From an uncultured Acidobacteriota bacterium (GTDB lineage Bacteria > Acidobacteriota > Terriglobia > Acidiferrales > UBA7541): a stretch of 64,000 nucleotides of DNA. The stretch covers positions 227,040 to 291,039 of the forward strand of contig CAVQFW010000006.1 of assembly GCA_963711875.1 (NCBI GenBank), read 5' to 3'. The translations under genes were made by a program, and so were the position numbers. The notes under the pieces were generated by a model. It was not told the DNA's origin. It was given only the letters and a program-made list of their open reading frames with translations, and ran no database searches. Below, in pieces: positions 31,306 to 47,277 of the stretch (positions are counted from its first letter, which is position 1; every line of letters starts with the position of its first letter).

Positions 31306-31335
31306 CGGCTTCCGCTTATTGAGGAGACGACTCCG

Positions 31336-32109: not shown

Positions 32110-34559
32110 TATGCGGCCTTACATTCGGACTGGCTTTGCTGGTAGCCGGCTGCAAGCGTAAGACAGCTCCGGATCCTCGAAGTACCTACAACGATGCATG
32201 GGCGAAGCTGAAACGCGGCGATCTCAGTGGATCGCGTTCAAACGTTGATGCGATTCGCTGGAAAGAGCTCCCACCGAATACCGAGTGGCCGTCCCGCTTT
32301 CGAGTGTTAGAAGCTGAAATTTTGTGGCGCCAGGGAATGAACAGCGAAGCCCTGGCGCTTCTGGAAGCACCCATTCCGAGCCAGTTCGCGACCTGCGACA
32401 TTTCAGTCTGGCGGAAAATGACGCAGGGAGCCGCCGATTCCTATCTTGAACGTTACGCCGACTCCATGAATCTTCTTACGGAAGCGGAGTCCCTCGCCAA
32501 GTCAGGCTGCCCTGAATTATTGGGGCAGGTCGCGCTTCGAAAGGGAACGCTCGCATTCGTTCGCGGCGACCCGGCAGCCGCCCAAGTGGAATATCTGACG
32601 GCGCTGCGAATCGCCAGGAGTATCAACGATCCATTCCTTGAGGCTTCAGCTCTCGGCAACTTGGGCATGAACGCTACGAAACGGGAACACTACGATGAAT
32701 CAATTGATTGGAATCGCGCGGCGCTCGATCTCTCGCAAACGATAGGCGCCGAGGGTTCGAAGGCCGTGATCCTCGGGAACACCGGTTGGAGCTATCTCGA
32801 AATGGGCGATTACGACCACGCACTCGCGCTGTTTCGACAGGCGGATGAAGCCTCCGGCAAGGCCGGATCGCTGAGCGCGCAAGCGGACTGGGAAATCAAT
32901 ATCGGAAACGTTTATTTGGCTCAGGGAAACTATGATGCGGCCCAGAAAGCATATCAGCAGGCACTTAACCTTGCGAATCGGCTCGGCGATGACGGCGCGA
33001 AGGCCAAATGTTATGACAATCTTGCGCTGGTAGCGCTGGAGCGGGGAGAGTTCGACTCAGCCCAGAGCTACAATGACAAGGTTCCTCCGCTTGTGCGCGT
33101 TCATTCAGACCTCGTCGTGTCGATTCTCGTGACGGGCCGCATTGACGCGATGAAACAAAGATACGCCGAAGCTGAGGAAGTATTCGAATCCGTGATTCGC
33201 GACGACGAAGCCCCCACTTCACTTCGCTGGGAAGCGCAGGCCCGTCTCGCAAAAGTGTATGCCTCGGAGGGGAAGCACGCGAACGCCGACCGGCAATTTC
33301 GGCAAGCCATCAATACATTCGCGAATGCGCGCCGTGCGGTGCAAAGCGAGGAACTGAGGCTCTCGTTCCTTTCGAACGCGATTTTGTTTTACAACGATTA
33401 CATCGAATTTCTAATTTCGCTGGGCCGCCCTGAGGACGCGCTGGAAGTGGCTGAAGTGAGCCGGGCGCAAACGCTGGCCGAGGGCCTGGGGCTCAGCTCG
33501 AAAATTTCGTTTCCGCTTCCGAATTTTCATCCGCGCTCGGTTGCGCAGCGTTTCGGGGCGACGCTCTTGTTCTACTGGCTCGGTGCCCAGCACTCCTATC
33601 TATGGGCAGTCACGGGAACTGGTACGTCGCTTCTTACCCTTCCCCCCGCCTCTGAAATTGAGCCGCTTATCAAAGCGTACCGGGCAGCTCTGCTCGGCCC
33701 GCGCGACGTGCTCGAAACGTCGAACGCGCAAGGAATCAAACTGTACGAGTTGCTGGTTGCGCCGGCGCAGAAGCTGGTTCCATCTGGTTCGCGCGTGGTA
33801 ATCCTGCCCGACGCAGGACTCTACGACTTGAACTTTGAGACGCTGCTGGTTCCAGGCGACCGGCTGCATTACTGGATCGAGGATGCGGTTGTCGCGAATG
33901 CGAATTCGCTGGTTCTGCTGGCTGCTTCAGCGGGGGAGCAACCTCAGAAACTGAAGAAGCTACTGCTGATTGGCGATCCGGTCTCGCCGGGCGCGGAGTT
34001 TCCCGACTTGCCGCAAGCGGCCGCCGAAATGGGAGATGTGGAACGATATTTTGCGGCGCCGGATCGCACCGTGCTCGCGCGACAGCAAGCCACCGCTGCG
34101 GCATATCTTGGCAGCCGGCCGGCACAGTATTCTTTCATCCATTTCGTCGCGCACGGCACGGCCAGCCGGACGAGCCCTCTCGATTCGGCCGTGATCCTCA
34201 CGCGCCAGGGAGATTCATACAAACTCTACGCGCGCGATATTGTGGCGCAGCCGCTGCGCGCCGATCTCGTCACGATTTCGGCGTGTCATGGCGCGGGCGA
34301 GCGTACGTACTCGGGCGAAGGACTCGTCGGACTCACGTGGGCATTCTTGCGCGCAGGCGCTCACGGTGTAATCGCTGCACTTTGGGAGGTTAATGACAAT
34401 TCCACGCCCGAGTTAATGGACGATCTCTACGCCGAAATCAAAAAAGGATCGCCGCCCGACGCTGCCTTGCACCACGCCAAGCTAAAGCTGCTTCACTCCG
34501 GCACCGTCTACCAAAAGCCCTTCTATTGGGCGCCGTTCGAGATCTACCGCGGCCACTAG
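31893..34559 (+). CDS. TPR-repeat CHAT-domain (caspase-like) protease, probable lipoprotein; start codon unresolved
   Basis: Lipoprotein-type signal RRRQWTSVALVCGLTFGLALLVAGC (Cys codon 32151-32153), ~450 aa of TPR repeats, then a CHAT domain with the His/Cys dyad context FIHFVAHGT and LVTISACHGAGE. The only in-frame ATG/GTG upstream of the signal peptide is 31893, which overlaps the previous gene by 217 nt. Confidence 0.8.
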   Translation: MLAGEGIEDRLCRNKASGTRLRNSGIREGVHRRGLGAIRQAHGDDAPRRTRLPRRRDDDGLARRRQWTSVALVCGLTFGLALLVAGCKRKTAPDPRSTYNDAWAKLKRGDLSGSRSNVDAIRWKELPPNTEWPSRFRVLEAEILWRQGMNSEALALLEAPIPSQFATCDISVWRKMTQGAADSYLERYADSMNLLTEAESLAKSGCPELLGQVALRKGTLAFVRGDPAAAQVEYLTALRIARSINDPFLEASALGNLGMNATKREHYDESIDWNRAALDLSQTIGAEGSKAVILGNTGWSYLEMGDYDHALALFRQADEASGKAGSLSAQADWEINIGNVYLAQGNYDAAQKAYQQALNLANRLGDDGAKAKCYDNLALVALERGEFDSAQSYNDKVPPLVRVHSDLVVSILVTGRIDAMKQRYAEAEEVFESVIRDDEAPTSLRWEAQARLAKVYASEGKHANADRQFRQAINTFANARRAVQSEELRLSFLSNAILFYNDYIEFLISLGRPEDALEVAEVSRAQTLAEGLGLSSKISFPLPNFHPRSVAQRFGATLLFYWLGAQHSYLWAVTGTGTSLLTLPPASEIEPLIKAYRAALLGPRDVLETSNAQGIKLYELLVAPAQKLVPSGSRVVILPDAGLYDLNFETLLVPGDRLHYWIEDAVVANANSLVLLAASAGEQPQKLKKLLLIGDPVSPGAEFPDLPQAAAEMGDVERYFAAPDRTVLARQQATAAAYLGSRPAQYSFIHFVAHGTASRTSPLDSAVILTRQGDSYKLYARDIVAQPLRADLVTISACHGAGERTYSGEGLVGLTWAFLRAGAHGVIAALWEVNDNSTPELMDDLYAEIKKGSPPDAALHHAKLKLLHSGTVYQKPFYWAPFEIYRGH

Positions 34560-34597
34560 ATTTTGTCGCGCTCTCGGCTCGTCGCGTCGAAATTGAC

Positions 34598-35845
34598 TCA
34601 GCGCGGATTCTCAAGCAGCATCGCGATGCCCTGTCCGCCGCCGATGCACGCAGACGCGACGCCGTAACGTTTCTCCGAACGCTCCAATTCGCGCGCCAGC
34701 GTCACCGCCAGCCTAATCCCGGTAGCAGCCAGCGGATGCCCGATCGCAATCGCGCCGCCGTTCACATTCAGCTTTCCCCGATCGAGCTTCAGCTCCCGCT
34801 CGACGCCGATCACCTGCGCCGCAAACGCCTCGTTGATTTCGAAGCGATCAATCGCGTCCAGCGACAATCCCACGCCATCCAAAAGCCTTCGAATCGCCGG
34901 CGCCGGACCGATGCTCATGATTTCAGGCGGCACACCGACGGTCGCCACAGCCACAATCCTCGCGAGCGGTTTTTTCTCCCGGGATTGGGCATAACTGCCC
35001 GAGCCCACAAGCGCCGCAGCCGCTCCGTCCACAATCGCCGAACTATTTCCCCCGGTCTGCACGCCGCCAAATGCCGGCCGTATTTTCGCCAAAGTCTCAT
35101 ACGAGGAAGCCCGAATGTGCGTGTCCACGGCAAGATTCTCGACGCCTTTCGGCAGCCGAATCCCGCGCGGTTTGTAACCGCTCAGCTCAAAAGTTTCGCT
35201 TACGACCGGCACGATCTCGCCGGACAAAAAGCATGTCGTCTGCGCCGCCAGCGCGCGCGAAAAACTCAATTCCGCGAAACGGTCCACGTCCTCGCGCGTA
35301 ATCTTGTACTCGCGCGCAATCGTCTCCGCCGTATCTCCCATCGTCACGTCAGCCGCCGGATCGAGCAGCGCCTCCCACAGAAAATCCTTGAACTCCACTT
35401 GCCCCATCCGAAATCCGCTGCGATGCGTGTACGCCGCGATCGGATTACGGCTCATCGATTCCGCACCGACGCACAGCCCCAGCTCGATTTTCTTCAAACG
35501 GATCGCGTCGGCTGCTTGTCCGATGGCTTCGATCCCGGTGCCGCAAACGCGCTGCACCAGCAGCGCAGGCCGATCCAGCGGCACGCCGGAATAAAGTCCA
35601 ATATGCCGCGGCAGCACGTACGCATCGAAACTAGCTTGCGCCACGCTTCCCGCGATCACCGCGCCCACGTCCGTCGGCGAAATCTTTGCACGCTCGAAAA
35701 CTCCGCGCGCCGCTTTGATGCCAAGATCGGTCGGCGACACGAGACCAAGCGCGCCGGTGTAGTCCACGAACGGCGTGCGCACGCCATCGAGAAGCCAGAT
35801 ATCGTCATACGCAATGAATATCCCGCTCTTTTCGTTTGCCATCAT
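34598..35845 (-). CDS. Acetyl-CoA C-acyltransferase (thiolase)
   Basis: VQRVCGTGIEA (active-site Cys), NVNGGAIAIGHPLAATG, ACIGGGQGIAMLLE. ATGA overlap with the upstream ligase gene. Confidence 0.9.
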   Translation of the reverse strand: MMANEKSGIFIAYDDIWLLDGVRTPFVDYTGALGLVSPTDLGIKAARGVFERAKISPTDVGAVIAGSVAQASFDAYVLPRHIGLYSGVPLDRPALLVQRVCGTGIEAIGQAADAIRLKKIELGLCVGAESMSRNPIAAYTHRSGFRMGQVEFKDFLWEALLDPAADVTMGDTAETIAREYKITREDVDRFAELSFSRALAAQTTCFLSGEIVPVVSETFELSGYKPRGIRLPKGVENLAVDTHIRASSYETLAKIRPAFGGVQTGGNSSAIVDGAAAALVGSGSYAQSREKKPLARIVAVATVGVPPEIMSIGPAPAIRRLLDGVGLSLDAIDRFEINEAFAAQVIGVERELKLDRGKLNVNGGAIAIGHPLAATGIRLAVTLARELERSEKRYGVASACIGGGQGIAMLLENPR

Positions 35846-37758
35846 GATTTTCCCGTGATCCGAAAAATAAACTGCGAAGGCCGCGCGCTATACATCTCTT
35901 CGACGAGCGCCGCGCGATGCTCGAGCACGGCCCGCTGGTTCAACGACCCTTTGTCTGTCATTTCGCGCGCGTCGAGCGACGGCGGCTCCTCGAGTACAAT
36001 CGCCCGCTGCACTCGATTCGAACTTCCGGTCGACTGCGTTGCCAATGCAGTCAACAAAGATTGAAAACGCTCCCTCACCGCATCATGCCGCAAGATGTCC
36101 GCGGTTGAAGCACCCGGCGCACCCGGCGCGATCTCCGGACACAGCGCGCAACACGCGGCAAGATCTGCAAAGATCATCATCCCGATTTCATCGCGATCGT
36201 GACCGGTAATAACCACGTCTCGCACAAACGGCGCAAAGTGGCTGATAATCCTCGCCCGCAAAGGGCCCACGCTCACCCACGTCCCCGTCGCAAGCTTGAA
36301 GTCTTCCGAGAATCGGCCATCGAAGAGAAAGCCCTTATTCACGTCCGCCGGATCGACGAATCGAACCGCATCCCCAAATTTGTAGAAGCCATCCTCGTCG
36401 AATGCTTTCTGCGTGAGTTCCGGCTGCCGCCAATACCCGGGCGTGATATTGGGTCCGCGCACTCGCACTTCCAATTTATTGCCTTGCGGGACGAGCTTCG
36501 CTTCGACGCCCGGAATCGGAATGCCGATCACGCCTGCGCGATCCGTCTCCCACGTCGTCTGAATCGCCATCGGCGCAGTTTCCGTCGCGCCGAGTCCCGT
36601 CACCATCACCACTCGCTCGCCGCAAGTTTCAACTGCAAGCTCGCGGTATGCATCCCACACCGGCTGCGACAAACCAGCCCCAGCGTAAAAAAGAAGTTTC
36701 AGCCGGCTGAAAAACTTTTCGCGCAGCCCGCGATCGCCGCGCAGCGCCGGCAGCAAATCTTCATAACCTTTCGGCACATTGAAAAATACGGTCGGAGCTA
36801 TTCCGCGTAGATTGCGGATCGTCTCCTCGATGAACCCCGCTCCGGGTTTGCCTTCGTCAATATAAAAACTGCCGCCGTTGTAGAGCGCGATGCCGATATT
36901 GTGATTGCCGCCGAACGTGTGATTCCACGGCAGCCAATCCACCAGCACCGGCGGCTCATCCTGCAAAAATCCAAAAACCTGCGCGATCATTTGCTGGTTG
37001 CAGCAGATCATTCGATGCGTGTTGACGACGGCCTTCGGCATCCCCGTCGATCCGGAGGTGAAAAGGAATTTCGCGGGACTATCGGGATCGATTCCTTCGT
37101 GAGCCGCCTCGATGGTGGAAGTTGGTTTCGTCGATAGGAGTTCCTCGAACAGCGTCGCCCTTCGAAATTCGGGCAGCGCCGCCGTCACGACGAGTTCCAT
37201 CTCGGCGCTCACCGCCGCTTCAATCGCGCGCCGGTATTTTTCGCCGTCCGAAACAAAGACCATTCCGGGCGTCAGCAGCGCGAGGCAATGCCGCAGTTGG
37301 GCAAGATCCTTTGACACAAGCGAATACACTGGCGAAAGATGCGCCGTCGGAATTCCGGCGTGCTGGCCTCCGAGCATGAGTAATAAATGTTCGAGGTCGT
37401 TCTCTGAAAGTATCGCCACGGGCCGCTCGGCGGAAAATCCCCGATCGACGAGCGCCTGCCCAATGCTTCGCGCAGCGGCGTAAACCTCCGCATAAGTGAG
37501 CGAGCGCCAGTTTCCATTCACATCGCGCTTCGCCGCGCAAATTCTTTCGGGCGCAATCGTCGCCCAGTGCGCAAGCCGGTCGGTAAGAACTCTCGGGTAC
37601 GCACCGAGAGGTTCGTCCGAAGAAACTATGATTGAGCCGTCCGCGAGGCGCTCCAGTGACGCGCCTGAACTGCGCAGCCTTACTTGGCGCACCCGAGTGC
37701 CGGATTTTTTCGCCGTGCCCGCGACGGGCTCCCGCTCACTCACAACAGCCTTTGGCAT
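35842..37758 (-). CDS. AMP-dependent CoA ligase, feruloyl-CoA-synthase-like
   Basis: FLFTSGSTGMPKAV AMP-binding motif. The N-terminal region (LGAYPRVLTDRLAHWATIAPERI...RSLTYAEVYAAARSIGQALVDRGFSAERPVAILSEN) closely resembles the Fcs family as I recall it. Confidence 0.8.
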   Translation of the reverse strand: MPKAVVSEREPVAGTAKKSGTRVRQVRLRSSGASLERLADGSIIVSSDEPLGAYPRVLTDRLAHWATIAPERICAAKRDVNGNWRSLTYAEVYAAARSIGQALVDRGFSAERPVAILSENDLEHLLLMLGGQHAGIPTAHLSPVYSLVSKDLAQLRHCLALLTPGMVFVSDGEKYRRAIEAAVSAEMELVVTAALPEFRRATLFEELLSTKPTSTIEAAHEGIDPDSPAKFLFTSGSTGMPKAVVNTHRMICCNQQMIAQVFGFLQDEPPVLVDWLPWNHTFGGNHNIGIALYNGGSFYIDEGKPGAGFIEETIRNLRGIAPTVFFNVPKGYEDLLPALRGDRGLREKFFSRLKLLFYAGAGLSQPVWDAYRELAVETCGERVVMVTGLGATETAPMAIQTTWETDRAGVIGIPIPGVEAKLVPQGNKLEVRVRGPNITPGYWRQPELTQKAFDEDGFYKFGDAVRFVDPADVNKGFLFDGRFSEDFKLATGTWVSVGPLRARIISHFAPFVRDVVITGHDRDEIGMMIFADLAACCALCPEIAPGAPGASTADILRHDAVRERFQSLLTALATQSTGSSNRVQRAIVLEEPPSLDAREMTDKGSLNQRAVLEHRAALVEEMYSARPSQFIFRITGKS

Positions 37759-37827
37759 CGTGAATTTTCATTCCCTTAATTCTAATACGCTGCGTCCGCG
37801 CCGCAAGCCATCGTTCATCTCGCCGAC

Positions 37828-38823
37828 TTACATCCCGCGCGACGCCGCTTCGAAATCCTTCAGCAAACGCTTCAAATCCGTTTCAGCCGGTACGTCGCCG
37901 TCGGTTGTCAGCACAACCGGCTTCGTGCCGGCAGGAGCCCGAAAAGCTGCGGCAGAATCGCCCGGTTGCGCAGCCTCCGCCGGAAGCGATACGCCGTACG
38001 GAAAATTCTGGGCGTGTCCTGCAGCCCTGGCCGCAAAATCAGCCGACGCCGAGCACAGTACCGCGTCCCACGATTGCTGCGAAATCACCTCGACGTTTGC
38101 AGCACTCATTCGCCCGCCCGCAAGTTGAAGCACAGGTAAAGCCTCGTAAAACCGAATGATGTTAAAAACCGGCGCAAGAAGTGACTGCCACGCCAGGCAC
38201 TGGTTCGCGGAAAGTTCCGGGAGAAATTCTTCGCGAATGAAAATCATGTTCGCGCCCGCTTCCACCAGCGCGGAAGCGATTCGCGTGATACCGGCTGCGG
38301 CGAAGTCGAGCGCCGGCACGAATCCCCATTCTTCCCGAAGGGGATCATCAGGCGCTCTCCCCATCAGTCGAGCAGCCAATGTGAACGGGCCTGAAACGCC
38401 GGCCATCAGCAGCGGCTCGTCGCGAAAAAGCGATTTGAGCCGCCGGATCACATCTGCAGCCACCTGCACCCGGGCGCTGCTTGCGGCAAGCTCGGGTGTT
38501 CTCAGGTAAGCGGGCAATTCACCTTTCGGCGCGGGTTCCGGCCAATGATTGCTGCGAACCTGATTCGCAGCGTCCCATTTCACTTCGCCGCCGAGCGCCT
38601 CGAACGCAAGCAGCGGATCGAAATAACACGCGACGCCATCCGTCCGGAGTTGCGTGCGAATTTGACGAAGCGCATTCGAAATTTTCGTGGGATTGTCGAG
38701 GTAAGCACGCAGCGAAAGATTTTCGATTTTCGCGCCCATAGAAAAAACAATTGGCACAAGCAGCGGTCGCTCGGGCTGAGAGCCCTGGAGCAGAGATGTA
38801 ACGATCTGGCGGGGAGTGGCCAT
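37828..38823 (-). CDS. Uroporphyrinogen-decarboxylase (URO-D) superfamily protein (decarboxylase or MtaA/CmuA-like methyltransferase fold)
   Basis: 331 aa with GVSGPFTLAARLMG and VEAGANMIFIREE resembling conserved URO-D-family segments. Assignment by resemblance only. Confidence 0.5.
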   Translation of the reverse strand: MATPRQIVTSLLQGSQPERPLLVPIVFSMGAKIENLSLRAYLDNPTKISNALRQIRTQLRTDGVACYFDPLLAFEALGGEVKWDAANQVRSNHWPEPAPKGELPAYLRTPELAASSARVQVAADVIRRLKSLFRDEPLLMAGVSGPFTLAARLMGRAPDDPLREEWGFVPALDFAAAGITRIASALVEAGANMIFIREEFLPELSANQCLAWQSLLAPVFNIIRFYEALPVLQLAGGRMSAANVEVISQQSWDAVLCSASADFAARAAGHAQNFPYGVSLPAEAAQPGDSAAAFRAPAGTKPVVLTTDGDVPAETDLKRLLKDFEAASRGM

Positions 38824-38899
38824 GCACCTTTATCGTGACACTGCTATTTGCTTACGCTTCGTCTGAGCGTGCGCACACGGCGAAGATTCCACAGCATAT

Positions 38900-40960
38900 T
38901 TACTGCCGGAAAATTGGTCCCAGAGACTTCGCATCCGGCCAGCGCCCGTAAAACTGCAAAATGTCCTCCGGCGGTTTGGTCTCATTCCACTCTTTGTGGA
39001 ACTCGTCGTACGATTTCCCGCGTGCCAGGCGATTCCGGCGCTCCGTGTCGCGCAACCGCTTCGTTTCGCCGGCATCGAGCTTGCCGCGCTCCGGATCATA
39101 AGCGATGTGATAGATCTTTCTCGCCGTCCATTCCGATACGATCTTCTTCTTCAGATCTTCGAGTACCTCGGCAGGTTCGCGTTCGAGCGGATCGCCATAG
39201 CCGGGACCGCCGCCGCTGAACCCAAAAAGCAGATCCCCTTCGTCGTAAAGCTTCGGAGTGCGCGCGATTAATTCAAACGTCCAGTCGCCGTGTACAGTCG
39301 TGTTTTCGAGAATGTCGCGGCTGTCCATCGAGAGCTTCGGATTGCCGTCGTGCATTTGCTTCAACAGATCGGCCTTGCGAACGCTAATGCCGGGAATGGG
39401 CGCGGAAGCGTAGCCGCCGAAAAGCGGCTGGCCCAGCGGCACTTTGCTGCCATTGCCCATGCAGAGCGAAACGAGGTGCGGCACTTTGTGAATCATCCAT
39501 TGCTGCACGCCGCCCGATCCGCCGCGATGCCGCCCCGGCCCGCAGGAATCCTTCCAGTGTTGCGAGAGCGTCACGGTAACCGGCAATTCGCTTTCCACCT
39601 GCTCGGAATCCGGCGCGCGTCCGAAAGCGCACCACGCAAAACCGTACGCATCCATTCCGTCCGTTGTCGCGCGGCCGCCTTGCCCTTGTGTGTTGAGCGA
39701 AAACGAAAGCACGTCCGACACCGCGAGATTCCACTGCGAATGCCCGGCGCAAATTTGCGCGGTATGCTGGTTGCCGGGAGACGCAGCGACCTGGCGCCAC
39801 AGTCCGGCGCTCGAAAAAGTCATCTTCGCGAAGCTGTTATGCGTCGCGCAGCGGCACTGCATGCCGATGTAAACGCAGCAACTCGTCGCCGCCATCCGCC
39901 CCGGATTCAGAATGATGCCCTCCGGAAAAACAAAATCGATGGGCGCAAAAGTAGAGCTGCAAATCGGCAAATCGTGGAACACGTACTCGTACATGAAATT
40001 CGCGATGTGACCCACTACGGCCTGCGAGTGCACGTTGTACGACGACGGGTTTTCCGGCGACGTCCCTTCGAAATCAAACGTCAGCGTCTCGCCTTTCTTG
40101 ATCAGCGTCAGGTAGCAGGCCCGCACAAGCGCCGGAGTCCAGCCGATTGCATCATTAAATACAACCGTCCGGAATTTGCCGTCGGGCAGATGCTTTATTT
40201 TCTGGCGTGCGCCCGCCTCTGCCGTATCCGACATTTTTCGCAGCAATCCCACCACAAATTCGCCGCCGCGCTTCTCCGCAAGCTCCAGCAGCCGGACGCG
40301 AACGCGATCCGCCGTCGTACAACGCGCCCGAAGATCGGAAATAAACATCGCGGGCGCACGCAGACCATACACGGTGTAGAACTCGAGAAAATCGTTGCGC
40401 AGTTCGTAGTTTTCGCCGATTTTGATCGGAGGCATGTTCAAGCCTTCGTCAAAGCGCGATTTCGCGCTCACGGGCATTCCACCCGGTTCAATCGCGCCCG
40501 TTTCCGTGGTGTGCAGCGCCGCGCTGGCCCACGCGAGCAATCTGCCTTTGTGAAAAATCGGCATCAGCGCCACTTGATCGGGATTGTGAATGCCGCCATA
40601 CAGCGCGTCGTTCGTGTACCAGATATCGCCTTCGCGAATGCCCGGATTCTCCGCGTAATTCTTCTGAATGAATTTGATTACGATCGGCTGGATGATTGCG
40701 TGCAGATAGGTTCCACAGGAAGCGTTCACCAGATCGCCGTTTGCCGTAAAAATTGCGACCATCGAATCACCGGAGACCCCGAAGTAGCTCCGCGAAGAGC
40801 GCACGAACACTTCCATGGCTTCATCGAGAATGTCGTTCGTGATCTGGACACCAATTTCGTAGTCGCCCGCAGGAACTTTCGCGGCGCATTCTTTTTCAAA
40901 CGCTGTTGCCGGTGCCGGCTTCAGCCACGCCAGTTTCTCGGCCGTTGTAGGGATGGACAT
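38900..40960 (-). CDS. Hydantoinase B/oxoprolinase-family subunit (acetone-carboxylase-alpha-like)
   Basis: GDSMVAIFTANGDLVNASCGTYLH...GDIWYTNDALYGGIHNPDQ is typical of the HyuB/AcxB family. ATG 40960 is preceded by GAAGGAGA. The ORF-track TTG start at 41020 has no SD and overlaps the upstream gene. Confidence 0.85.
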   Translation of the reverse strand: MSIPTTAEKLAWLKPAPATAFEKECAAKVPAGDYEIGVQITNDILDEAMEVFVRSSRSYFGVSGDSMVAIFTANGDLVNASCGTYLHAIIQPIVIKFIQKNYAENPGIREGDIWYTNDALYGGIHNPDQVALMPIFHKGRLLAWASAALHTTETGAIEPGGMPVSAKSRFDEGLNMPPIKIGENYELRNDFLEFYTVYGLRAPAMFISDLRARCTTADRVRVRLLELAEKRGGEFVVGLLRKMSDTAEAGARQKIKHLPDGKFRTVVFNDAIGWTPALVRACYLTLIKKGETLTFDFEGTSPENPSSYNVHSQAVVGHIANFMYEYVFHDLPICSSTFAPIDFVFPEGIILNPGRMAATSCCVYIGMQCRCATHNSFAKMTFSSAGLWRQVAASPGNQHTAQICAGHSQWNLAVSDVLSFSLNTQGQGGRATTDGMDAYGFAWCAFGRAPDSEQVESELPVTVTLSQHWKDSCGPGRHRGGSGGVQQWMIHKVPHLVSLCMGNGSKVPLGQPLFGGYASAPIPGISVRKADLLKQMHDGNPKLSMDSRDILENTTVHGDWTFELIARTPKLYDEGDLLFGFSGGGPGYGDPLEREPAEVLEDLKKKIVSEWTARKIYHIAYDPERGKLDAGETKRLRDTERRNRLARGKSYDEFHKEWNETKPPEDILQFYGRWPDAKSLGPIFRQ

Positions 40961-40985
40961 GCGTCTCCTTCCAGTCTCTGCAAGC

Positions 40986-43106
40986 TCAACTTTCGAGAAT
41001 GCCGAGGCCTCGTTCATCAATCGAAAATTTCATCGACGGCGGCACAACCACCGTCGTGTACTCGCCTTCCAGGATCGCCGGACCTTCGAGCGTGTTTCCG
41101 GGCCGCAGCAGTTCGTAGGAATAAAGCGGCGTCGGGCGATAGTCTTTCGCCTCGGCCCAGTAGGCGGGGCGCTCGCCTTTGCGTGCTGCGGACGGGTCGT
41201 GGCCTTCGAGCGGCATTTTCGGCAGATTGATCTGCTGTACCGGAACGATCGCTTTCAGGATGAAGCTGTCGACGAACACGCCGCCTTCCGGATTTACGAC
41301 GAACGGACTGAACGCCTCGCTGAATTCTTTTTTGAACGCCTCACACACGGCGCCAACGTCATCGGTCGAATGCAGCGCGAGCCGCGGCGAAAGCGCGCGC
41401 TTCACGTGGAACTGGCCGCCGTAGAGCATGTCGAGCTCGAGTACAAACGAAGCGGCCGCGGGATCGAGTCCATCCGCGATCAGATCCTTGTGCGCTTGCT
41501 CGAGAAGTTCTTCCACCGTGCGGTTGAATACGGCGAATTCCTGCGTGAGCTCTTGCGTGCCCGGAGACATCAGCGTGAGTTTCTTCGAGACTTCGTAGAC
41601 GTGCATGATGTCCATCGTGGACGAGCCAAACGCGCAGAAAACCGGCGAGAAGGGAAACGTGACGGCTTTCTTGATGTCCGCCTTGTACCCTTCCGCGTGC
41701 GTTGCGCCGGCGCCGCCGCCCACGAACAAAATAAAATCCTCGGGACTGTAACCGCGCAGGTGTACTTCTTTCATGATCGCCGACGCCATGTTGCCGTTGA
41801 CGATTTTGCGGATCAGCGTCGCCGCTTCTTCCACCGATATTCCGAAGGGCTTCGCAATTTTGTCCCGAATCGCGGCGATGGCGCGATTTTTGTCGAGTTT
41901 CATCCGCCCGCCGGAATAGTAGCCGGGGTTTATGTAGCCAAGGACGACATCCGCATCGGTGACGGTCGGCTCCGTGCCTCCCAGGCTGAAACAAGCAGGG
42001 CCAGGTAATGACCCGGCGCTCCGCGGCCCCACTTGAAGCTGATTTTGGAGCAGGGGATTGATCGAGGCGATCGAGCCGCCTCCCGCGCCGACGGATAGCG
42101 TCTTGATCATCGTGATTCCGACCATCCAACGGTCGATGATCGGGCGGAAGTCGTAACTCCGCACGCTGTCTTTCACCACGAGCCCCACATCAAAACTCGT
42201 CCCGCCCATATCCGTCATCACAACATTTTGGTATCCGAGCGATTTCGCCACGTGGTGAGCGCCCATCAACCCGGAAACAGGGCCGCTGTTGAATGTGCGG
42301 CAGGCGGTGGTACGAAAAACCTCCGCAATACCGCCGGAGCTTTGAATCATCAGCAGCGGTTTCTTGTAACCGCGCTCGCGCAGCTTGTCCCACATCGCGG
42401 AAAGTTCGATCTGCATCGAGCGCTGAAGATACGCGTCGAGAATTGCGGCAAGCGTCCGCTCGTATTCGCCCAGCTTGCCCACCACCTGGCCGGCGAGAAC
42501 CACGGGCAGGTAACCGATGTGAAATTCCTTGTACTCGTCGCGAATGATTTCCTTTATGCGTTTTTCGTGAGCCGAATTGAGAAAGCCCCACAAGAGCGAG
42601 ACAACGAAACCGCGAGCGCCGCGGCTCACCAGGTAGCGGACTTTCTCGCGCACGTCGTTCTCATCGAGCGGCCGGATGATCGTGCCGCGCGAGTCCACGC
42701 GCTCTTTCACGCCCACGATCATGTCGCGAGGGATCAGTGGATCGGGCTTTTTCTGGATGGCGAGATTGCGGCGTTCCTGTACGCGCGTCCCGTCAATCCA
42801 CTGCGCTCCCCGGCCGATGAGAACCACGTCCTCATGGCCTTCCGTCGTGATCAGCCCCAGGCGCGGTCCTTTTTTCTCGATCAGCCGGTTCATCGCGATC
42901 GTTGTCGAGTACCGGATCATGTCGATCGCAGGCAGGAGCTCTTCGATCTTCATCCCCAGCGCCCCCGCGCCTTCTTCGATCACCCGCGAAAAGCACACGG
43001 AAAGATCGTAAGGAGTCGTCGGAACCTTCTTGATCAACGCCTTCCCATTGAAGTTGAGGACGAGATCGGTGAACGTCCCGCCGACGTCGATATCAATCGA
43101 ATTCAT
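40986..43106 (-). CDS. Hydantoinase A/oxoprolinase-family subunit (acetone-carboxylase-beta-like)
   Basis: MNSIDIDVGGTFTDLV N-terminus and DMGGTSFDVGLV. 706 aa. ATGA overlap with the gamma-like gene. Confidence 0.9.
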   Translation of the reverse strand: MNSIDIDVGGTFTDLVLNFNGKALIKKVPTTPYDLSVCFSRVIEEGAGALGMKIEELLPAIDMIRYSTTIAMNRLIEKKGPRLGLITTEGHEDVVLIGRGAQWIDGTRVQERRNLAIQKKPDPLIPRDMIVGVKERVDSRGTIIRPLDENDVREKVRYLVSRGARGFVVSLLWGFLNSAHEKRIKEIIRDEYKEFHIGYLPVVLAGQVVGKLGEYERTLAAILDAYLQRSMQIELSAMWDKLRERGYKKPLLMIQSSGGIAEVFRTTACRTFNSGPVSGLMGAHHVAKSLGYQNVVMTDMGGTSFDVGLVVKDSVRSYDFRPIIDRWMVGITMIKTLSVGAGGGSIASINPLLQNQLQVGPRSAGSLPGPACFSLGGTEPTVTDADVVLGYINPGYYSGGRMKLDKNRAIAAIRDKIAKPFGISVEEAATLIRKIVNGNMASAIMKEVHLRGYSPEDFILFVGGGAGATHAEGYKADIKKAVTFPFSPVFCAFGSSTMDIMHVYEVSKKLTLMSPGTQELTQEFAVFNRTVEELLEQAHKDLIADGLDPAAASFVLELDMLYGGQFHVKRALSPRLALHSTDDVGAVCEAFKKEFSEAFSPFVVNPEGGVFVDSFILKAIVPVQQINLPKMPLEGHDPSAARKGERPAYWAEAKDYRPTPLYSYELLRPGNTLEGPAILEGEYTTVVVPPSMKFSIDERGLGILES

Positions 43107-43489
43107 TCAGCTACCTCGAGCCTCTGGTCGCGGATTACGAACTCGCCTTTCCGCAGGCGTTCTTTCAGGCTGTCCAGATCGATTTCAATATCGTGCGTCA
43201 CGGGATGGCCCGGAGGCAGATACTCGGTTTCCACCTGCGTCCCGCAGCCGGGGCAGTAAAACTCCACGATGCGAACCCAGAGAGGGTCGGGCGAAAAGCT
43301 GAAAGCCCCGGGAACAAGCGGCGGATGGATTTCGCGCGGGTCGCGATCGTACAGCAGGCACCCGCGCTTGTAGTTTTCGCGCGCAGGCCCAATCGCGTGC
43401 CCACAGCGGTTGCAGTGCCACCGCTCGCCGTCGAGATCGAGGTCGAGATATTCGGTAACGCGCAGCCGGTTTTTGGTCTCCGAAGCCAT
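43103..43489 (-). CDS. Acetone-carboxylase-gamma-like small zinc-binding subunit
   Basis: 128 aa with WHCNRCGH...FYCPGCGTQVETEY (four-Cys site) and REIHPP. GGAGG RBS upstream. Confidence 0.85.
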   Translation of the reverse strand: MASETKNRLRVTEYLDLDLDGERWHCNRCGHAIGPARENYKRGCLLYDRDPREIHPPLVPGAFSFSPDPLWVRIVEFYCPGCGTQVETEYLPPGHPVTHDIEIDLDSLKERLRKGEFVIRDQRLEVAE

Positions 43490-43525
43490 ATTCCACCTCC
43501 AGCCATGCAGCCTGATTCTGCGACT

Positions 43526-43603
43526 TTCTAATCTACTGTGCCGCGATTAGAAATGACCGTAAACCCTTTATAATCAACAAAAATATGCGTTCTAATCTAC
43601 TGT
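43526..43603 (-). promoter_or_regulatory. Putative promoter/operator: 14-nt exact direct repeat x2, an 8-bp inverted repeat, and -35/-10-like elements
   Basis: TTCTAATCTACTGT occurs at 43526-43539 and 43590-43603. TTCTAATC (43526-43533) pairs with GATTAGAA (43545-43552). On the minus strand, TTAGAA (43590-43595), a 16-nt spacer and TTATAA (43568-43573) resemble -35/-10. This is an AT-rich island in an otherwise GC-rich operon. Confidence 0.4.
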
Positions 43604-43645
43604 AAAATGCCCTGCAGCCGATTCAACGTTCGCGCCGATTTCTGG

Positions 43646-45664
43646 TCATTTTCTGGTGAGTTCGCCGTTGCCGAATCGGTCGATGGACATCGTCCAGCCA
43701 TCGGGAACCAGGTACGTTGTGTTCAGCCCTTCCAGCACCGCCGGCCCTTCCACTCGATTGCCCGGCTCGAGCGATTCCCAGCGGTAAAGTTTTGCTTCGC
43801 CGTCGCGGCTGCCCCAGAAAATTCTTCGCGAGCCTGTGAGACCGCGCGCGGGATCAGCGGCTTGCAATGCGCGGTCCGGTAGGTGCGGCTTTGACATCGC
43901 TTTTTTCACCCGGACGCGCATCAGCTCGAGCGAGATGTTTGCAGTCTGCGCGTCGGGCGACGCTTGGAGTGCGGCGGCAAGCACGGCGCGCAATTCCCTT
44001 GCGCTGGTGACGGCCGATTCGGAGCAGGGGACTGGAATCGAGTTCCGTCCGTTTCCGGAAGCTTCGAACTCGATTTCGTAGAGCAGATTATCGGGACGGA
44101 TCCCTTCGCCCAGCAAATCCTTCACGCCTTCGGCCTTAATTTCATCGAGGATTTTGCGCAGCCGGTCGCTGGAGGAATCGGTCGTCGCGATGCCCGAGAG
44201 GCCGCGTTCGTAGACGTGACAGATGTCCGAAACGGACGAACCGAACGCGCTGAACACGGGGCCGAGCGTGAACACTTTCACTTTTCGCAGGCCTGCTTTT
44301 TCTGCAACGCCGCAGGAAAAGAGGCTGCCGTTGCCGCCGTAGGCAAAGAGCGTGTGTTGCGAGACGTCCTCGTTCAACTCTTTGGCGGACGCGGCGATGA
44401 GGTCCGCGACCAGCTCGAAGGCGCGATCGATCACCCGCCTGCACGCCTCTTCGACGGAAACGTTCATCGGCTTGGCCACTTGATTCTCGATTACGGATTG
44501 CGCCAGATCGCGATCGAGGGGCTTCGCGCCGCCGAGGAAGAATTCCGGATTGATCAGCCCGGCTGTTACGAACGCATCGGTGAGCGTGGGCTGGTCGCCG
44601 CCGAGTCCATAGCACGCCGGGCCCGGGAACGAGCCCATGCTTTCGGGGCCGAGTTCGATTCGTGAGTTTCCGGCAGCGCCAGCAGGTTTCACCACGCTGC
44701 CGCCGCCGAGCGCGATCGAGCGCAAATCGGGAAGAGAAATCTCGACGGGGATGCCGAAGAAATCGGATGGCTTGCGGTTGATCGGGAGTCCGTTGCGCAA
44801 AGTGCTGACTTTCGCGGTGGTGCCGCCGATGTCCATCGCGACCACGTCCTTCAGGCCGTAGAGCTGCGCGAAAAACACACTGGCATGGATGCCGAGAATC
44901 GGGCCGGACTCAATCGTGTCGATCGCTTTCGTTTTGGCGATGCCTGCGACGCCGCCATTGATGTGGCTGACGAGAAATGTTCCGTGGTAGTGAGATGTCT
45001 GGCGCAGCTCGTCTTCGGCTTTGAAAAGGGTGGCAGCGAGCGCGCCGTGCGTGTACGCGTTGATCACCGCACAATAGGTGCGCGTGCGGTCGTCGGCGCT
45101 CTTGGAGATATCGCTTCCGGCGAGCACCGGCACCGAGCCGAGAAAATGGTCTGGATACTGCAAATCGATCGCCGATTTTACGGCCAGCTCCGAAGCCGCC
45201 TCGCGATGGCTACCTTTCAGGCTGACGCAAATTCTCCGCACGCCGCCTTCGAGCAGAGCGCGAGCGGCGTTCGTAACTTCGGCTTCCTTCGAGGAGCCAT
45301 TTACGCCGATGATGTCTTTTTCGGCGAGGAGGCGGTTCAGCACCGAGCTGCGCGGATCGCTGCCGTAGAGATCTTTTTCGTGGCCTTTCGAAACGAGAAG
45401 GCCGATTCGGGGGCCGCGAAGTTCGGCAAGAACGTTGGATGTGATCGTGGTGGACCATCGAATCAAATCGATGTGCTCGAGGAATTCGGCCGTATCGGCG
45501 AAGCCCAGCTTCGCGGCGCCCTGCGCGAGGCAGTCGAAAAGGCAGACGGTGAGGTCGTGCGGGGTCGTATCAACCTTCGCCGAGAAGACCTGCTCGCCGT
45601 TTGTGAAAATTCCGTCGGTGAGTGTACCGCCGACGTCGATGTCAACCGTCCACACAGCCTTCAT
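43646..45664 (-). CDS. Second hydantoinase A-family subunit (paralog; alpha-prime-like)
   Basis: MKAVWTVDIDVGGTLTDG and MDIGGTTAKV. ATG 45664 overlaps the upstream stop as TGATG. The Arg-rich 110-aa extension in the ORF track is rejected. Confidence 0.85.
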   Translation of the reverse strand: MKAVWTVDIDVGGTLTDGIFTNGEQVFSAKVDTTPHDLTVCLFDCLAQGAAKLGFADTAEFLEHIDLIRWSTTITSNVLAELRGPRIGLLVSKGHEKDLYGSDPRSSVLNRLLAEKDIIGVNGSSKEAEVTNAARALLEGGVRRICVSLKGSHREAASELAVKSAIDLQYPDHFLGSVPVLAGSDISKSADDRTRTYCAVINAYTHGALAATLFKAEDELRQTSHYHGTFLVSHINGGVAGIAKTKAIDTIESGPILGIHASVFFAQLYGLKDVVAMDIGGTTAKVSTLRNGLPINRKPSDFFGIPVEISLPDLRSIALGGGSVVKPAGAAGNSRIELGPESMGSFPGPACYGLGGDQPTLTDAFVTAGLINPEFFLGGAKPLDRDLAQSVIENQVAKPMNVSVEEACRRVIDRAFELVADLIAASAKELNEDVSQHTLFAYGGNGSLFSCGVAEKAGLRKVKVFTLGPVFSAFGSSVSDICHVYERGLSGIATTDSSSDRLRKILDEIKAEGVKDLLGEGIRPDNLLYEIEFEASGNGRNSIPVPCSESAVTSARELRAVLAAALQASPDAQTANISLELMRVRVKKAMSKPHLPDRALQAADPARGLTGSRRIFWGSRDGEAKLYRWESLEPGNRVEGPAVLEGLNTTYLVPDGWTMSIDRFGNGELTRK

Positions 45665-46332
45665 CACCTCAATTGATCGATCAATTCCTGCGCCGTGATC
45701 GTCCAGCCGAAGAATGATTCTACGTTGAAAAGCGTCGCTTCGTGTGCCGAGGCGGGGCCGGCGGGCATGGCTGCGTCGGAAAGCAGGATCGGCCAGTAAT
45801 CGTGAAAGTAGGCGTCGCGCAGTGTGGATTCGACGCAGACGTTGGTGGCAATTCCGGCGAAAAATAGATATTGAGCGCCGCGCATCCGAAGTTGCGAATC
45901 GAGCGGCGTGCCCGCGAATCCGCTGTATCGCGTTTTTGTGATGACGAGATCGCCCGGTTGAGCAGCGAGGTCGGCAACGATTTCCGCGTCCCACGTTCCT
46001 TCGGTCAAGACCTTGCCTTTAAGTTCGGGGCGCGAGCCCATCAGCGTCATCGCCAATTCCTTTCGGGGATTGGGAGAGTTCGGGCCGCCGCTGTCACTCA
46101 GGTCTGGTTTGTAAGCCATGCGCAGGTGGACGATCGGCACAGCCATGCGGCGCGCGGCATCGAGGACCGAGCGGATGACGCGTATCACGCGCGAAGCGCC
46201 GGTGATGTCAACTCCTGCGATATCGAGCATCCCGCCCTTGCTGGCAAACGCGTTCTGCATGTCGACCACCACAACGGCCGATTTCTTGAAATCGACCTCG
46301 AGCGGATTTGGCTTCGAGTCTAATTTTGTCAT
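45664..46332 (-). CDS. Isochorismatase-family cysteine hydrolase
   Basis: AVVVVDMQNAF and FAGIATNVCVESTLRDA (catalytic Cys context). 222 aa. Confidence 0.85.
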   Translation of the reverse strand: MTKLDSKPNPLEVDFKKSAVVVVDMQNAFASKGGMLDIAGVDITGASRVIRVIRSVLDAARRMAVPIVHLRMAYKPDLSDSGGPNSPNPRKELAMTLMGSRPELKGKVLTEGTWDAEIVADLAAQPGDLVITKTRYSGFAGTPLDSQLRMRGAQYLFFAGIATNVCVESTLRDAYFHDYWPILLSDAAMPAGPASAHEATLFNVESFFGWTITAQELIDQLR

Positions 46333-46338
46333 GCCGAT

Positions 46339-47064
46339 TCAGTCGCGCCCCGCTTCGATGATTTTCGCTGCCAGTCCTTTCGGGTTCGTGTAGATCACTT
46401 CGTGGCTTCCCGGCATCTGCACGAGGCGATAGAGGCCCAGGCGACTCGACATCCGCGGATGCCAGTTCCAATCGCCGTGCGGCATCGCCGTGTCCTCGGT
46501 GCAATTGATGTAGCTCTTCGGCGTGGGCAGTGAATAGAATTTTTTCAGGTCGAGCTTGTCCTTGATCGGCTGATAGGGCTCCGGCGAAAGCTGCGCGTAT
46601 GTCCACTTGGCCATTTCGAGATCGGCGTCGTTCACGAATGCTTCGCGCCAGATTGGAAACGGAATCATCACCGTATCGTCGGTGGACTCGCTCGCGAGTT
46701 TGTCAAACAACGCGCCGTAGTGCGGAGGCGCTTCGTCACTGAGGCTGTGGCCGTCGCGCAGGACGAAGCCATTCACGAAGACGAGGCGCTTGACGCGGTC
46801 GGGAATCGCTTCGACGACTTTGGAGATGACAGTCCCGCCGAAACTGTGGCCGACGAGGACGAAGCCGGTGATTCCTTTGGCCACAATGTAATCGACGATC
46901 GACTTCGTACAGTCCGCGTGATTGACGTGTTTGTTGACGCCTTTTCCGTGGCCGGCGATGGTGGGAGCAAACGCGGTGTGCCCGTTCTCCTCGAGTGCCC
47001 GGATGGTTGCGTCCCATGCTGCGCCGTCATGCCAGGAACCGTGGACCAATACGAAAGTATCCAA
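46339..47064 (-). CDS. Alpha/beta-fold hydrolase
   Basis: FVLVHGSWHDG and nucleophile elbow VLVGHSFGG. TTG 47064 is preceded by AGGAGA at 7-nt spacing. Confidence 0.8.
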   Translation of the reverse strand: MDTFVLVHGSWHDGAAWDATIRALEENGHTAFAPTIAGHGKGVNKHVNHADCTKSIVDYIVAKGITGFVLVGHSFGGTVISKVVEAIPDRVKRLVFVNGFVLRDGHSLSDEAPPHYGALFDKLASESTDDTVMIPFPIWREAFVNDADLEMAKWTYAQLSPEPYQPIKDKLDLKKFYSLPTPKSYINCTEDTAMPHGDWNWHPRMSSRLGLYRLVQMPGSHEVIYTNPKGLAAKIIEAGRD

Positions 47065-47234
47065 ACCAGATTCTCCTGAGGGAATTGCGAGGCCAGGGTA
47101 AGTCCAAGCCCTGCGAGCCGGATTCGCGCACTCCCGATAACGGCTGAAGGACAACGGCCACGCTTTCAAATTCGGAAGGAGAAGGCGGGCCCGAAATCTT
47201 TTCTAATCTTTTCTGACCTTTTACGATTGAGGCG

Positions 47235-47263
47235 CCGGCCGCGAAGTTGAATTTCGCGGCCGG
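47235..47263 (-). terminator. GC-rich stem-loop downstream of the TonB-dependent receptor gene (no U-tract)
   Basis: CCGGCCGCGAA (47235-47245) pairs with TTCGCGGCCGG (47253-47263) around a 7-nt loop. Confidence 0.4.
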
Positions 47264-47277
47264 TCCGGGTTTCGATC

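Follow-up and report, generated by a model that had tools for sequence, protein, structure and literature searches.

The closest described system to the operon reported here is the acetophenone carboxylase (Apc) of Aromatoleum aromaticum EbN1, ApcABCDE (EC 6.4.1.8; PDB 5L9W for the core and 9FOU for the ε subunit). The operon lies on the minus strand at positions 34598-47064 of a 64-kb stretch of DNA (the window), and its host is one of the uncultured soil acidobacteria in the 'Candidatus Acidiferrales' group. It probably encodes a five-subunit, biotin-independent and ATP-dependent Apc-type ketone carboxylase together with a ligase and thiolase route for the product, the substrate being most likely an aryl methyl ketone. 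In A. aromaticum, the carboxylation of acetophenone is followed by a benzoylacetate-CoA ligase (Bal) and thiolysis, as an earlier note on this DNA had stated (PMC4729919). The benzoylacetyl-CoA thiolase of that organism is still unidentified and lies outside the operon; the carboxylase is described as highly substrate-specific, and hydroxyacetophenones are handled there via a different pathway (PMC4729919). Apc-like apcABCD(E) clusters outside Aromatoleum have been known since 2017 (PMC5214803). Literature searches found no relevant paper on Apc-like genes in Acidobacteria and nothing relevant on the carboxylation of Sphagnum-derived hydroxyacetophenones.

The window operon and the Aromatoleum cluster share the order α', γ, α, β, ε, with identities of 61% for α and γ, 52% for β, 43% for α' and about 22% for ε. 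They also share the four-cysteine site of γ, the D/H/D/H site of β, the ASKHA ATP motifs, the KERxDSxG motif, similar subunit lengths and a CoA ligase gene that follows the carboxylase genes. The window differs in scoring under the equivalog thresholds, in two residues of the proposed ketone pocket (Q344K, invariant in its clade, and L81M, variable), in a ligase of the feruloyl-CoA synthase (Fcs) type in place of the PaaK type, and in a thiolase encoded within the operon. It also carries genes for a RutB-like amidohydrolase, an α/β-hydrolase and a TonB-dependent receptor; neither a two-component regulator nor ethylbenzene genes are found nearby, and the host belongs to the Acidobacteriota.

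For comparison, a scan with one genome per species gave 293 species genomes with an α-subunit relative, from which 80 loci were taken and searched by tblastn with the window proteins; counts of acidobacterial neighbours refer to the 15 loci with full flanks. Clusters of Actinomycetota (e.g. Pseudonocardia benzenivorans, L058) and Panacagrimonas (L020) resemble the window in having, downstream of apcABCD, genes for a thiolase and for a ligase of the Fcs family, the latter 40-48% identical to that of the window. They are unlike it in that ε was detectable in only 2 of the 19 actinobacterial loci, the distant thiolase that often stands alongside is only 23-27% identical to that of the window, the pocket residue is Gln and not Lys, and both the RutB-like gene and the TonB-dependent receptor are absent. 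A PaaK-like ligase is present as well in the actinobacterial clusters examined (L058 by Pfam, further Pseudonocardia-type loci by tblastn), so that the P. benzenivorans locus holds both ligase types; L058 also carries a GntR regulator.

Acetone carboxylase, AcxABC (PDB 5SVB, 5M45), belongs to the same superfamily and likewise carries out ATP-dependent, biotin-independent ketone carboxylation with a zinc-ribbon γ subunit and a HyuB-type metal site. It differs in having three subunits without α' or ε, a γ of ~168 amino acids (aa), a HyuB-type subunit of ~776 aa and one nucleotide site yielding AMP, and it matches the window proteins at only 40-358 bits. Aryl methyl ketones such as acetovanillone and 4-hydroxyacetophenone are reportedly carboxylated to aroylacetates, on the way to aromatic acids, by Hpe of Rhodococcus and AcvABCDEF of Sphingobium SYK-6. 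These systems are said to phosphorylate the phenol and then to use a biotin-dependent carboxylase unrelated to Apc; genes homologous to theirs are absent from the window.

Gene array and carboxylase subunits

The features of the operon and of its immediate surroundings are as follows.

47278-50736, minus strand: TonB-dependent outer-membrane receptor (CarboxypepD_reg and OMP_b-brl_4, Pfam), a conserved upstream neighbour
47065-47277, minus strand: intergenic region 5' of the operon, with a GC hairpin after the receptor gene and one AGATTAGAA at 47201-47209
46339-47064, minus strand: α/β-hydrolase (Abhydrolase_6; GHSFGG nucleophile elbow), 241 aa, TTG start with an AGGAGA Shine-Dalgarno sequence; accessory
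45664-46332, minus strand: isochorismatase-family protein (RutB-like cysteine amidohydrolase), 222 aa
43646-45664, minus strand: HyuA paralog, the ApcA-like α' subunit, 672 aa
43490-43645, minus strand: intergenic gap of 156 nucleotides (nt), 45% GC, between the ApcA-like and γ genes
43103-43489, minus strand: ApcB-like γ subunit with zinc ribbon (Pfam Acetone_carb_G), 128 aa
40986-43106, minus strand: HyuA, the ApcC-like α subunit, 706 aa
38900-40960, minus strand: HyuB, the ApcD-like β subunit, 686 aa (open reading frame 38900-41020, 706 aa)
37828-38823, minus strand: protein resembling uroporphyrinogen decarboxylase (URO-D), the ApcE-like ε subunit, 331 aa
35842-37758, minus strand: AMP-binding CoA ligase, probably of the feruloyl-CoA synthase family, 638 aa
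34598-35845, minus strand: degradative thiolase (acetyl-CoA C-acyltransferase), 415 aa

Nine co-oriented genes were recovered at 34598-47064 by open reading frame listing and translation, each with strong family matches in Pfam and NCBIfam, and the coordinates, sizes and family assignments of the array described earlier were all reproduced. The stop of the isochorismatase-family gene and the start of the ApcA-like gene overlap as TGATG, and ATGA overlaps occur at the junctions of γ with the ApcC-like gene and of the ligase with the thiolase, in agreement with the overlaps mentioned previously. The gap called AT-rich is indeed 156 nt long at 45% GC, compared with ~59% for the window. The length of HyuB, left at 686-706 aa in the earlier note, is 686 aa: the alignment to ApcD begins at M21 of the 706-aa reading frame (position 40960), the start also chosen by gene callers on identical contigs, and 706 aa describes the reading frame only. 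Four independent soil-metagenome contigs in ENA, the longest reaching 520 kb, carry the operon with an ApcC-like protein identical to that of the window, so that it is no product of misassembly. The labels of close relatives are Candidatus Acidiferrales, Terriglobia or Acidobacteriota; a few of their bins bear other phylum labels and look like mis-binning.

The four core proteins find their best PDB matches, one-to-one, in separate chains of 5L9W, the A. aromaticum Apc core, at scores 2.5- to 5-fold above those for acetone carboxylase, caprolactamase and N-methylhydantoinase. The ApcC-like α protein matches 5L9W_B, its best PDB match, with 994 bits at 61% identity, versus 358 bits for Acx, 337 for the caprolactamase 6YRA (deposited as 5-oxoprolinase/hydantoinase) and 293 for the N-methylhydantoinase 7HK5. 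For the ApcD-like β protein the score is 841 bits to 5L9W_A (52% identity) versus 159, 107 and 100 for the same three enzymes. The ApcA-like α' protein matches 5L9W_b with 558 bits (43%), and the ApcB-like γ protein matches 5L9W_C with 178 bits (61%) versus 40 bits for the γ subunit of Acx. The top NCBIfam models are, in gene order, ApcA, ApcB, ApcC, ApcD and ApcE, and those for ApcC and ApcD exceed the caprolactamase models (ApcC 1081 vs CapA 459 bits; ApcD 886 vs CapB 131 bits). The score hierarchies, in PDB for α, β and γ and in NCBIfam for all five proteins, place the subunits with Apc and apart from oxoprolinase, caprolactamase and N-methylhydantoinase.

Rules separating Apc, Acx and Hyd were given by Weidenweber et al. 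2017 (PMC5214803). For Apc these comprise the order apcABCD(E), the subunit lengths (β of ~680 aa and not ~720-776, γ of ~130 aa and not ~168, with two HyuA-type subunits), four γ cysteines, ASKHA ATP motifs in α and α', R/KERxDSxG in α only, and glycine-rich polyproline II segments in β. The window shows the order apcA-B-C-D-E on its minus strand, and the lengths of β, γ, α and α' (686, 128, 706 and 672 aa) agree with those in 5L9W (684, 129, 732 and 658). The γ cysteines C26, C29, C79 and C82, contained in CNRC and CPGC motifs, align with C22, C25, C75 and C78 of 5L9W, so that all four zinc ligands whose absence would have spoken against the assignment are present. The α protein has the ATP motifs DIDVGGTFTD, DMGGTS and GSLPGP and the signature KERVDSRG; the α' protein has DIDVGGTLTD, DIGGTT and GSFPGP, lacks the KER motif and conserves E248, D274 and K281. 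Six of the eight polyproline II segments of β have a Gly-containing core, and agreement is complete for the other five rules. Residues D65, H123, D126 and H148 of β, the putative metal ligands, are conserved. The catalytic Mn ligands of acetone carboxylase are His150, Asp153, His175 and Glu89 (PMC5543143); from the position and the D/E-H-D-H pattern, with the two proteins not aligned to each other, we infer that the four β residues are their counterpart.

HyuAB-type hydrolases of the superfamily consist of two subunits only and have neither γ nor α' (PMC5214803). The Apc core of two HyuA, one HyuB and one γ subunit given in the earlier note agrees with the literature (PMC5214803, PMC4729919). 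Identity as an oxoprolinase, caprolactamase, N-methylhydantoinase or acetone carboxylase was rejected on the score ranking and the subunit composition. Acetone carboxylase, with three subunits, a long γ and a long HyuB, does not fit two HyuA paralogs, a γ of 128 aa, a HyuB of 686 aa and the low scores to 5SVB and 5M45; a two-subunit HyuAB-type hydrolase does not fit γ and α' proteins with intact motifs.

The composition of four subunits given in the earlier note was correct for its members and incomplete by one, the URO-D-like protein. The best NCBIfam match of this protein is the ApcE model (74 bits, E 1e-20), and its best PDB sequence match is 9FOU, 'acetophenone carboxylase epsilon subunit' (E 1e-13). 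Its AlphaFold2 model, built with 40 homologs (predicted local distance difference test score 87.6, predicted template modelling score 0.90), has 9FOU as the best fold match (E 2e-16, template modelling score 0.69-0.79), followed by MtaA methyltransferases and uroporphyrinogen decarboxylases. A homolog lies 3' of apcD in all 15 acidobacterial loci of full length. Published ε subunits are far more divergent than the other Apc subunits (PMC5214803), with which the identity of ~22% agrees; among the acidobacterial matches listed, ε homologs are 51-75% identical to the window protein, versus 85-97% for the best 120 of α. From hidden Markov model, sequence, predicted fold and gene position, the URO-D-like gene is assigned as apcE, and the predicted enzyme therefore has five subunits and not four. 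A role as a haem or methyltransferase enzyme was considered and rejected, since ApcE is the top match by model, sequence and fold and the gene takes the apcE position in 15 of 15 loci. The genes of the operon have evolved at very unequal rates: across acidobacterial loci (L005, L068-L086), α and β are ~77-91%, α' ~54-75% and ε ~34-54% identical to the window proteins.

Ligase, thiolase and other partners of the carboxylase

The order apcA-B-C-D was found in every one of the 80 loci long enough to show it. Partners of the carboxylase were counted in the acidobacterial loci as follows.

ε subunit: 15/15
TonB-dependent receptor (homolog of at least 45% identity in the same position): 12/15
Fcs-type ligase: 10/15
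RutB-like hydrolase: 9/15
α/β-hydrolase: 2/15
Thiolase orthologue: 1/15 (L079), plus the truncated L086

By these counts the conserved acidobacterial module consists of the receptor, the RutB-like gene, apcABCDE and the ligase, and the thiolase and the α/β-hydrolase are strain-level accessories outside it. The Fcs-type ligase follows apcE or, in four loci (L077, L078, L082 and L085), stands directly 5' of apcA in place of the RutB-like gene.

The ligase matches NCBIfam PRK12582 at 774.2 bits (cut-off 777), has an intact TSGSTGMPK motif and is 51-56% identical to Fcs genes of Ralstonia and Burkholderia. Its close relatives are named 'feruloyl-CoA synthase' by the annotation pipelines PGAP and JGI, in line with the family first suggested for it. 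The best PDB matches are malonyl-CoA synthetases, weakly, at 90 bits. The fcs copy of Ralstonia that was examined, 51% identical to the window ligase, lies in a MarR-ech-vdh-fcs hydroxycinnamate cluster, and this relationship fits a C6-C3 aromatic acid such as an aroylacetate as substrate. The known substrates of Fcs-type ligases are C6-C3 aromatic acids, to which aroylacetates are similar. No ech or vdh partner was found in the window, so the substrate need not be ferulate. Judged from its sequence, the protein is probably an AMP-forming enzyme of the feruloyl-CoA synthase family, and it is proposed to act as a β-keto-acid CoA ligase.

In L012 and nine other proteobacterial loci the gene 3' of apcE encodes a PaaK-like ligase; one locus of this kind is L007, whose α is 90% identical to that of Aromatoleum. 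'Bal type' is used here for these PaaK-type ligases of orthologous loci, and the comparison rests on them and not on the Aromatoleum bal sequence. The PaaK-like ligase of L012 gave no match as a tblastn query (E ≤ 1e-20) in the window-identical loci L001-L004. Orthology to Bal was rejected, the window ligase being of the Fcs type and non-homologous to the PaaK-type ligase of the proteobacterial orthologues; by sequence comparison it is classed as functionally analogous, not homologous, to Bal. A ligase of one type or the other adjoins the apc genes in most of the 80 loci, which represent more than six phyla, and a thiolase is often present too; besides the acidobacterial loci, the Fcs type accompanies apc genes in 12 of the 19 actinobacterial loci and in 3 of the 6 from Panacagrimonas. 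The repeated pairing of the carboxylase with a ligase from two unrelated families supports a route of carboxylation, CoA activation and thiolysis. The claim that ligase and thiolase reproduce the logic of Aromatoleum holds in that both are present with intact motifs and the pairing recurs, and needs amending in that the ligase is not homologous to the PaaK type and the thiolase is a rare accessory.

The thiolase matches TIGR01930 at 374 bits, with BktB and PcaF as the nearest models, and has the motif residues Cys100, His371 and Cys400. In the close Apc orthologue cluster of L012 (Comamonas sp. SCN 65-56), the genes 3' of apcE (16572-18802) encode a ligase of the PaaK type, then a thiolase and a CobW/ZigA-like zinc-chaperone GTPase. 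This thiolase may represent the 'unknown' benzoylacetyl-CoA thiolase type, and the GTPase may have its role at the zinc site of the carboxylase.

The isochorismatase-family protein is a RutB-like cysteine amidohydrolase of full length. It shares 47% identity with RutB of E. coli (PDB 8BKD) and conserves the counterparts of D24, K133 and C166, which we take to be the catalytic Asp-Lys-Cys triad. Its NCBIfam RutB score of 255 bits is below the cut-off of 378, and rut genes are not found nearby. It differs from RutB by Y29F, Y35M, N72M, S92E and Q105K, several positions that we presume to bind the substrate. None of the loci outside the phylum has a homolog of at least 60% identity. The TGATG coupling to apcA and the occurrence in 9 of 15 loci argue for a functional link with the carboxylase, and the enzyme may set the ketone free from a precursor of the amide, enamide or carbamoyl type. 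The two upstream hydrolases, together with the ligase, had been taken as a hint of an aromatic or ester-derived ketone; one of the hydrolases, as a RutB-like amidohydrolase, points instead to a C-N bond, and the α/β-hydrolase is accessory.

Substrate, proposed route and competing explanations

The proposed acetophenone pocket of Apcα comprises L81, F281, N282, P285, I333, Q344 and T345, assigned tentatively from a 3 Å structure without ligand (PMC5214803). Five of the seven residues are identical in the window α protein. L81 is replaced by Met, as in most non-proteobacterial sequences, and Q344 by Lys (K335 of the window protein), which is found in 21 of 21 sequences of the acidobacterial clade, compared with Gln (58) or Glu (2) in the 60 others. 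Since the pocket assignment is tentative, the clade Lys is a lead and not a proof. Taken together, the pocket Lys, the hydroxycinnamate-type ligase and the receptor suggest an aromatic methyl ketone, perhaps with a polar or anionic substituent. Acetophenone itself need not be the substrate, which is probably some aryl methyl ketone, with the TonB-dependent receptor as its possible importer.

The steps proposed for the carboxylase follow by analogy with the Aromatoleum enzyme, and those downstream follow from gene content and operon coupling. An aryl methyl ketone would be taken up through the adjacent TonB-dependent receptor. The α subunit would phosphorylate the enol form of the methyl ketone, and α' would phosphorylate bicarbonate to carboxyphosphate, with two ATP converted to two ADP in total. 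The two activated partners would then join to give a β-keto acid; ε would be required for activity, and γ would carry a structural zinc. The co-transcribed Fcs-family ligase would convert the β-keto acid to its CoA thioester, which the translationally coupled thiolase would cleave to an acyl-CoA and acetyl-CoA.

Several observations weigh against this reading. All five subunits score under the NCBIfam equivalog cut-offs for a strict Apc orthologue (NF042960, NF042974-NF042977), with 660 of 1250 bits for ApcA, 198 of 250 for ApcB, 1081 of 1500 for ApcC, 886 of 1500 for ApcD and 74 of 450 for ApcE. Of the 15 related acidobacterial loci, 5 lack the ligase within 10 kb and 14 lack the thiolase. 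A simple route from ketone to acyl-CoA, which contains no obvious C-N bond, offers no step for the tightly coupled RutB-like amidohydrolase. The pocket used for comparison is only tentatively assigned, and the tree of α subunits described below has neither bootstrap support nor Acx or Hyd outgroups. To our knowledge, biochemical or expression data on Apc-like enzymes exist for the Aromatoleum enzyme only.

Three other explanations were compared with an Apc-type carboxylase acting on an aryl methyl ketone. A strict functional orthologue of Aromatoleum Apc, converting acetophenone to benzoylacetate and then to benzoyl-CoA and acetyl-CoA, would share the subunit set, the gene order, identities of 43-61% to the characterised core subunits, five of seven pocket residues and a ligase and thiolase mirroring the Aromatoleum pathway, all of which are found here. 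We nevertheless consider it unlikely, as every subunit falls under its equivalog cut-off, Gln344 is Lys throughout the clade (21/21) and Gln or Glu in all 60 others, an Fcs-type ligase replaces the PaaK-type ligase of the proteobacterial orthologues, a RutB-like amidohydrolase and a TonB-dependent receptor are added, and the genes for ethylbenzene and 1-phenylethanol are absent from the window; the Aromatoleum enzyme is, moreover, reported to be highly substrate-specific (PMC4729919). Carboxylation of a small aliphatic ketone (acetone, butanone or a longer methyl ketone), with the enzyme as an acetone carboxylase analogue that feeds acetoacetate-type products to the ligase and thiolase, is highly improbable. 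Acx scores far below Apc for α, β and γ (358 vs 994, 159 vs 841 and 40 vs 178 bits), an α' subunit and a short γ are typical of Apc, the pocket keeps F281, P285 and I333, which are hydrophobic residues of the aromatic type, the ligase is of the hydroxycinnamate (Fcs) family, and a TonB-dependent receptor is unexpected for small ketones that diffuse freely. These points outweigh the nearness of the thiolase to BktB and acetoacetyl-CoA thiolase models, the presence of acetone carboxylases among the ketone carboxylases of the superfamily and the weak matches (90 bits) of the ligase to malonyl-CoA synthetases.

The third explanation does without carboxylation: an ATP-dependent amide, lactam or hydantoin hydrolase would work with the RutB-like amidohydrolase on a nitrogen-containing compound. 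There is a precedent in creatinine catabolism, where N-methylhydantoinase acts together with N-carbamoylsarcosine amidase, a member of the same isochorismatase family. The main support here is the RutB-like gene, TGATG-coupled to apcA and recurrent in the acidobacterial loci, and ATP-dependent hydrolases do exist in the superfamily (PMC5214803). This explanation is given very low weight because the superfamily hydrolases are two-subunit enzymes without γ and α', both of which are conserved here with intact ATP and zinc motifs. The scores to caprolactamase, oxoprolinase and N-methylhydantoinase are at most one third of those to Apc, the downstream ligase and thiolase suit a β-keto acid and not an amino acid, and in the four loci named above the ligase stands in place of the RutB-like gene.

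Within the reading as an Apc-type carboxylase for aryl methyl ketones, a more specific proposal is put forward tentatively: the acidobacterial clade may form a functionally distinct carboxylase for polar or substituted aryl methyl ketones, for example 4-hydroxyacetophenone or acetovanillone, or else an amino- or amido-acetophenone that the amidohydrolase would set free. It would be marked by the invariant Lys of the pocket, a ligase of the Fcs type, a RutB-like partner and a TonB-dependent receptor. If so, abundant uncultured Acidobacteria of soil and peat would have a biotin-independent route for aromatic ketones derived from lignin, Sphagnum or microbes, unlike the Hpe and Acv pathways. Should the substrate be a plant-derived aryl ketone, a further route of aromatic-carbon turnover and heterotrophic CO2 incorporation would be added in a dominant soil phylum. 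The locus as such is a well-supported annotation improvement rather than a surprise. It brings to light a complete five-subunit version of Apc with intact motifs, common in uncultured soil and peat Acidobacteria, and a pathway wiring in which the carboxylase has repeatedly been combined with a CoA ligase, drawn from either of two unrelated families, and at times with a thiolase. The pocket Lys of the clade, the Fcs-type ligase and the coupled RutB-like amidohydrolase offer handles on the substrate.

Distribution, regulation and neighbouring genes

A neighbour-joining tree of α subunits was calculated from Kimura distances and rooted on α' paralogs. Without bootstraps, it places the acidobacterial α proteins in one clade within the Apc α branch, far from the α' paralogs; this clade is sister to Chloroflexota and Archaeoglobi and separate from the proteobacterial clade that contains the characterised enzyme. 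Locus L055, from the Archaeoglobi metagenome-assembled genome JdFR-42, carries apcA-B-C-like genes at 6-4383 with 43-68% identity and groups with the Chloroflexota and Acidobacteriota.

Of 8000 scored candidates, 7849 matched α at E ≤ 1e-50, other HyuA-family proteins included. The best 120 α homologs come almost all from soil and peat metagenomes. The γ subunit matched 422 clusters at E ≤ 1e-3 among 1.84 billion 50%-identity representatives, 147 of them at E ≤ 1e-10 and 13 at E ≤ 1e-30. These sequence counts suggest that γ-bearing carboxylases form a narrow family whose acidobacterial version is abundant in soil metagenomes. Four proteins of 786-827 aa (P0384, P0386, P0449 and P0500) have a γ homolog at the C-terminus and look like natural fusions of γ with a HyuA-type, α'-like protein. 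In the plasmid collection no close relative of ApcC was found, the best matches, at 48% identity or less, being from haloarchaea and Rhodococcus only. The cluster look-up returned no cultured isolates, all entries being metagenome-assembled genomes.

The 9-mer AGATTAGAA occurs three times in the window, versus 0.25 expected, in each case on the operon strand and within the two intergenic regions of the operon (43526-43603 and 47201-47209). In the 156-nt gap the 9-mer forms a perfect 14-nt direct repeat, two copies of ACAGTAGATTAGAA 64 nt apart, and the inverted pair TTCTAATC-N11-GATTAGAA. By sequence, the repeats of the gap look like a candidate operator or internal promoter. In a relative with a 91%-identical ApcC the gap is ~28 nt, and the repeat motif is absent from the related loci of other strains; the candidate operator is thus strain-specific. 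A structured RNA or riboswitch in the gap was rejected, with no Rfam match and a fold z-score of 0.14. At 34300-47400 no sigma-70 consensus promoters were found, and terminator-like sites were no more frequent than in shuffled sequences.

Three co-oriented genes lie 5' of the receptor at 50915-54679. They encode a 399-aa protein without Pfam or NCBIfam match, a short 'core' MetE-like methionine synthase (PRK04326, 307 bits) and a fusion of methylenetetrahydrofolate reductase (MTHFR) with DUF5981. MetE-like homologs are found upstream of the apc cluster in 5 of the 15 acidobacterial loci, and MTHFR-like and/or 399-aa homologs stand alongside in several loci, e.g. L005, L068, L072, L073, L075 and L081. 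These genes probably belong to methionine or C1 metabolism and have been kept by shared ancestry.

The minus strand at 54977-63041 encodes the E1β and E1α subunits of a 2-oxoacid/acetoin-type dehydrogenase, a quinoprotein dehydrogenase (also matching NCBIfam 'acido-empty-quinoprotein group A'), a thiolase of the SCP-x type, a fatty-acyl-CoA ligase and a DUF5938/saccharopine-dehydrogenase-like protein. This region may be another catabolic module for an alcohol or ketone. The core-MetE-like, MTHFR-like, E1α/β, quinoprotein, SCP-x-type thiolase and acyl-CoA ligase genes were considered as members of the carboxylase pathway and rejected: they recur in some relatives, for which shared ancestry within one order is the simpler explanation, and their annotations do not fit.

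Convergent genes lie 3' of the operon at 29374-34559 and encode an extended sigma-70 r2/r4 protein, a zf-HC2 anti-sigma-like protein, a DUF8256 protein and an 888-aa TPR-CHAT protein, the gene for the last being split or shortened in some otherwise identical contigs. At 25991-28562 the functions of LigD are encoded by three adjacent separate genes, for a 3'-phosphoesterase, an ATP-dependent ligase and a primase-polymerase.

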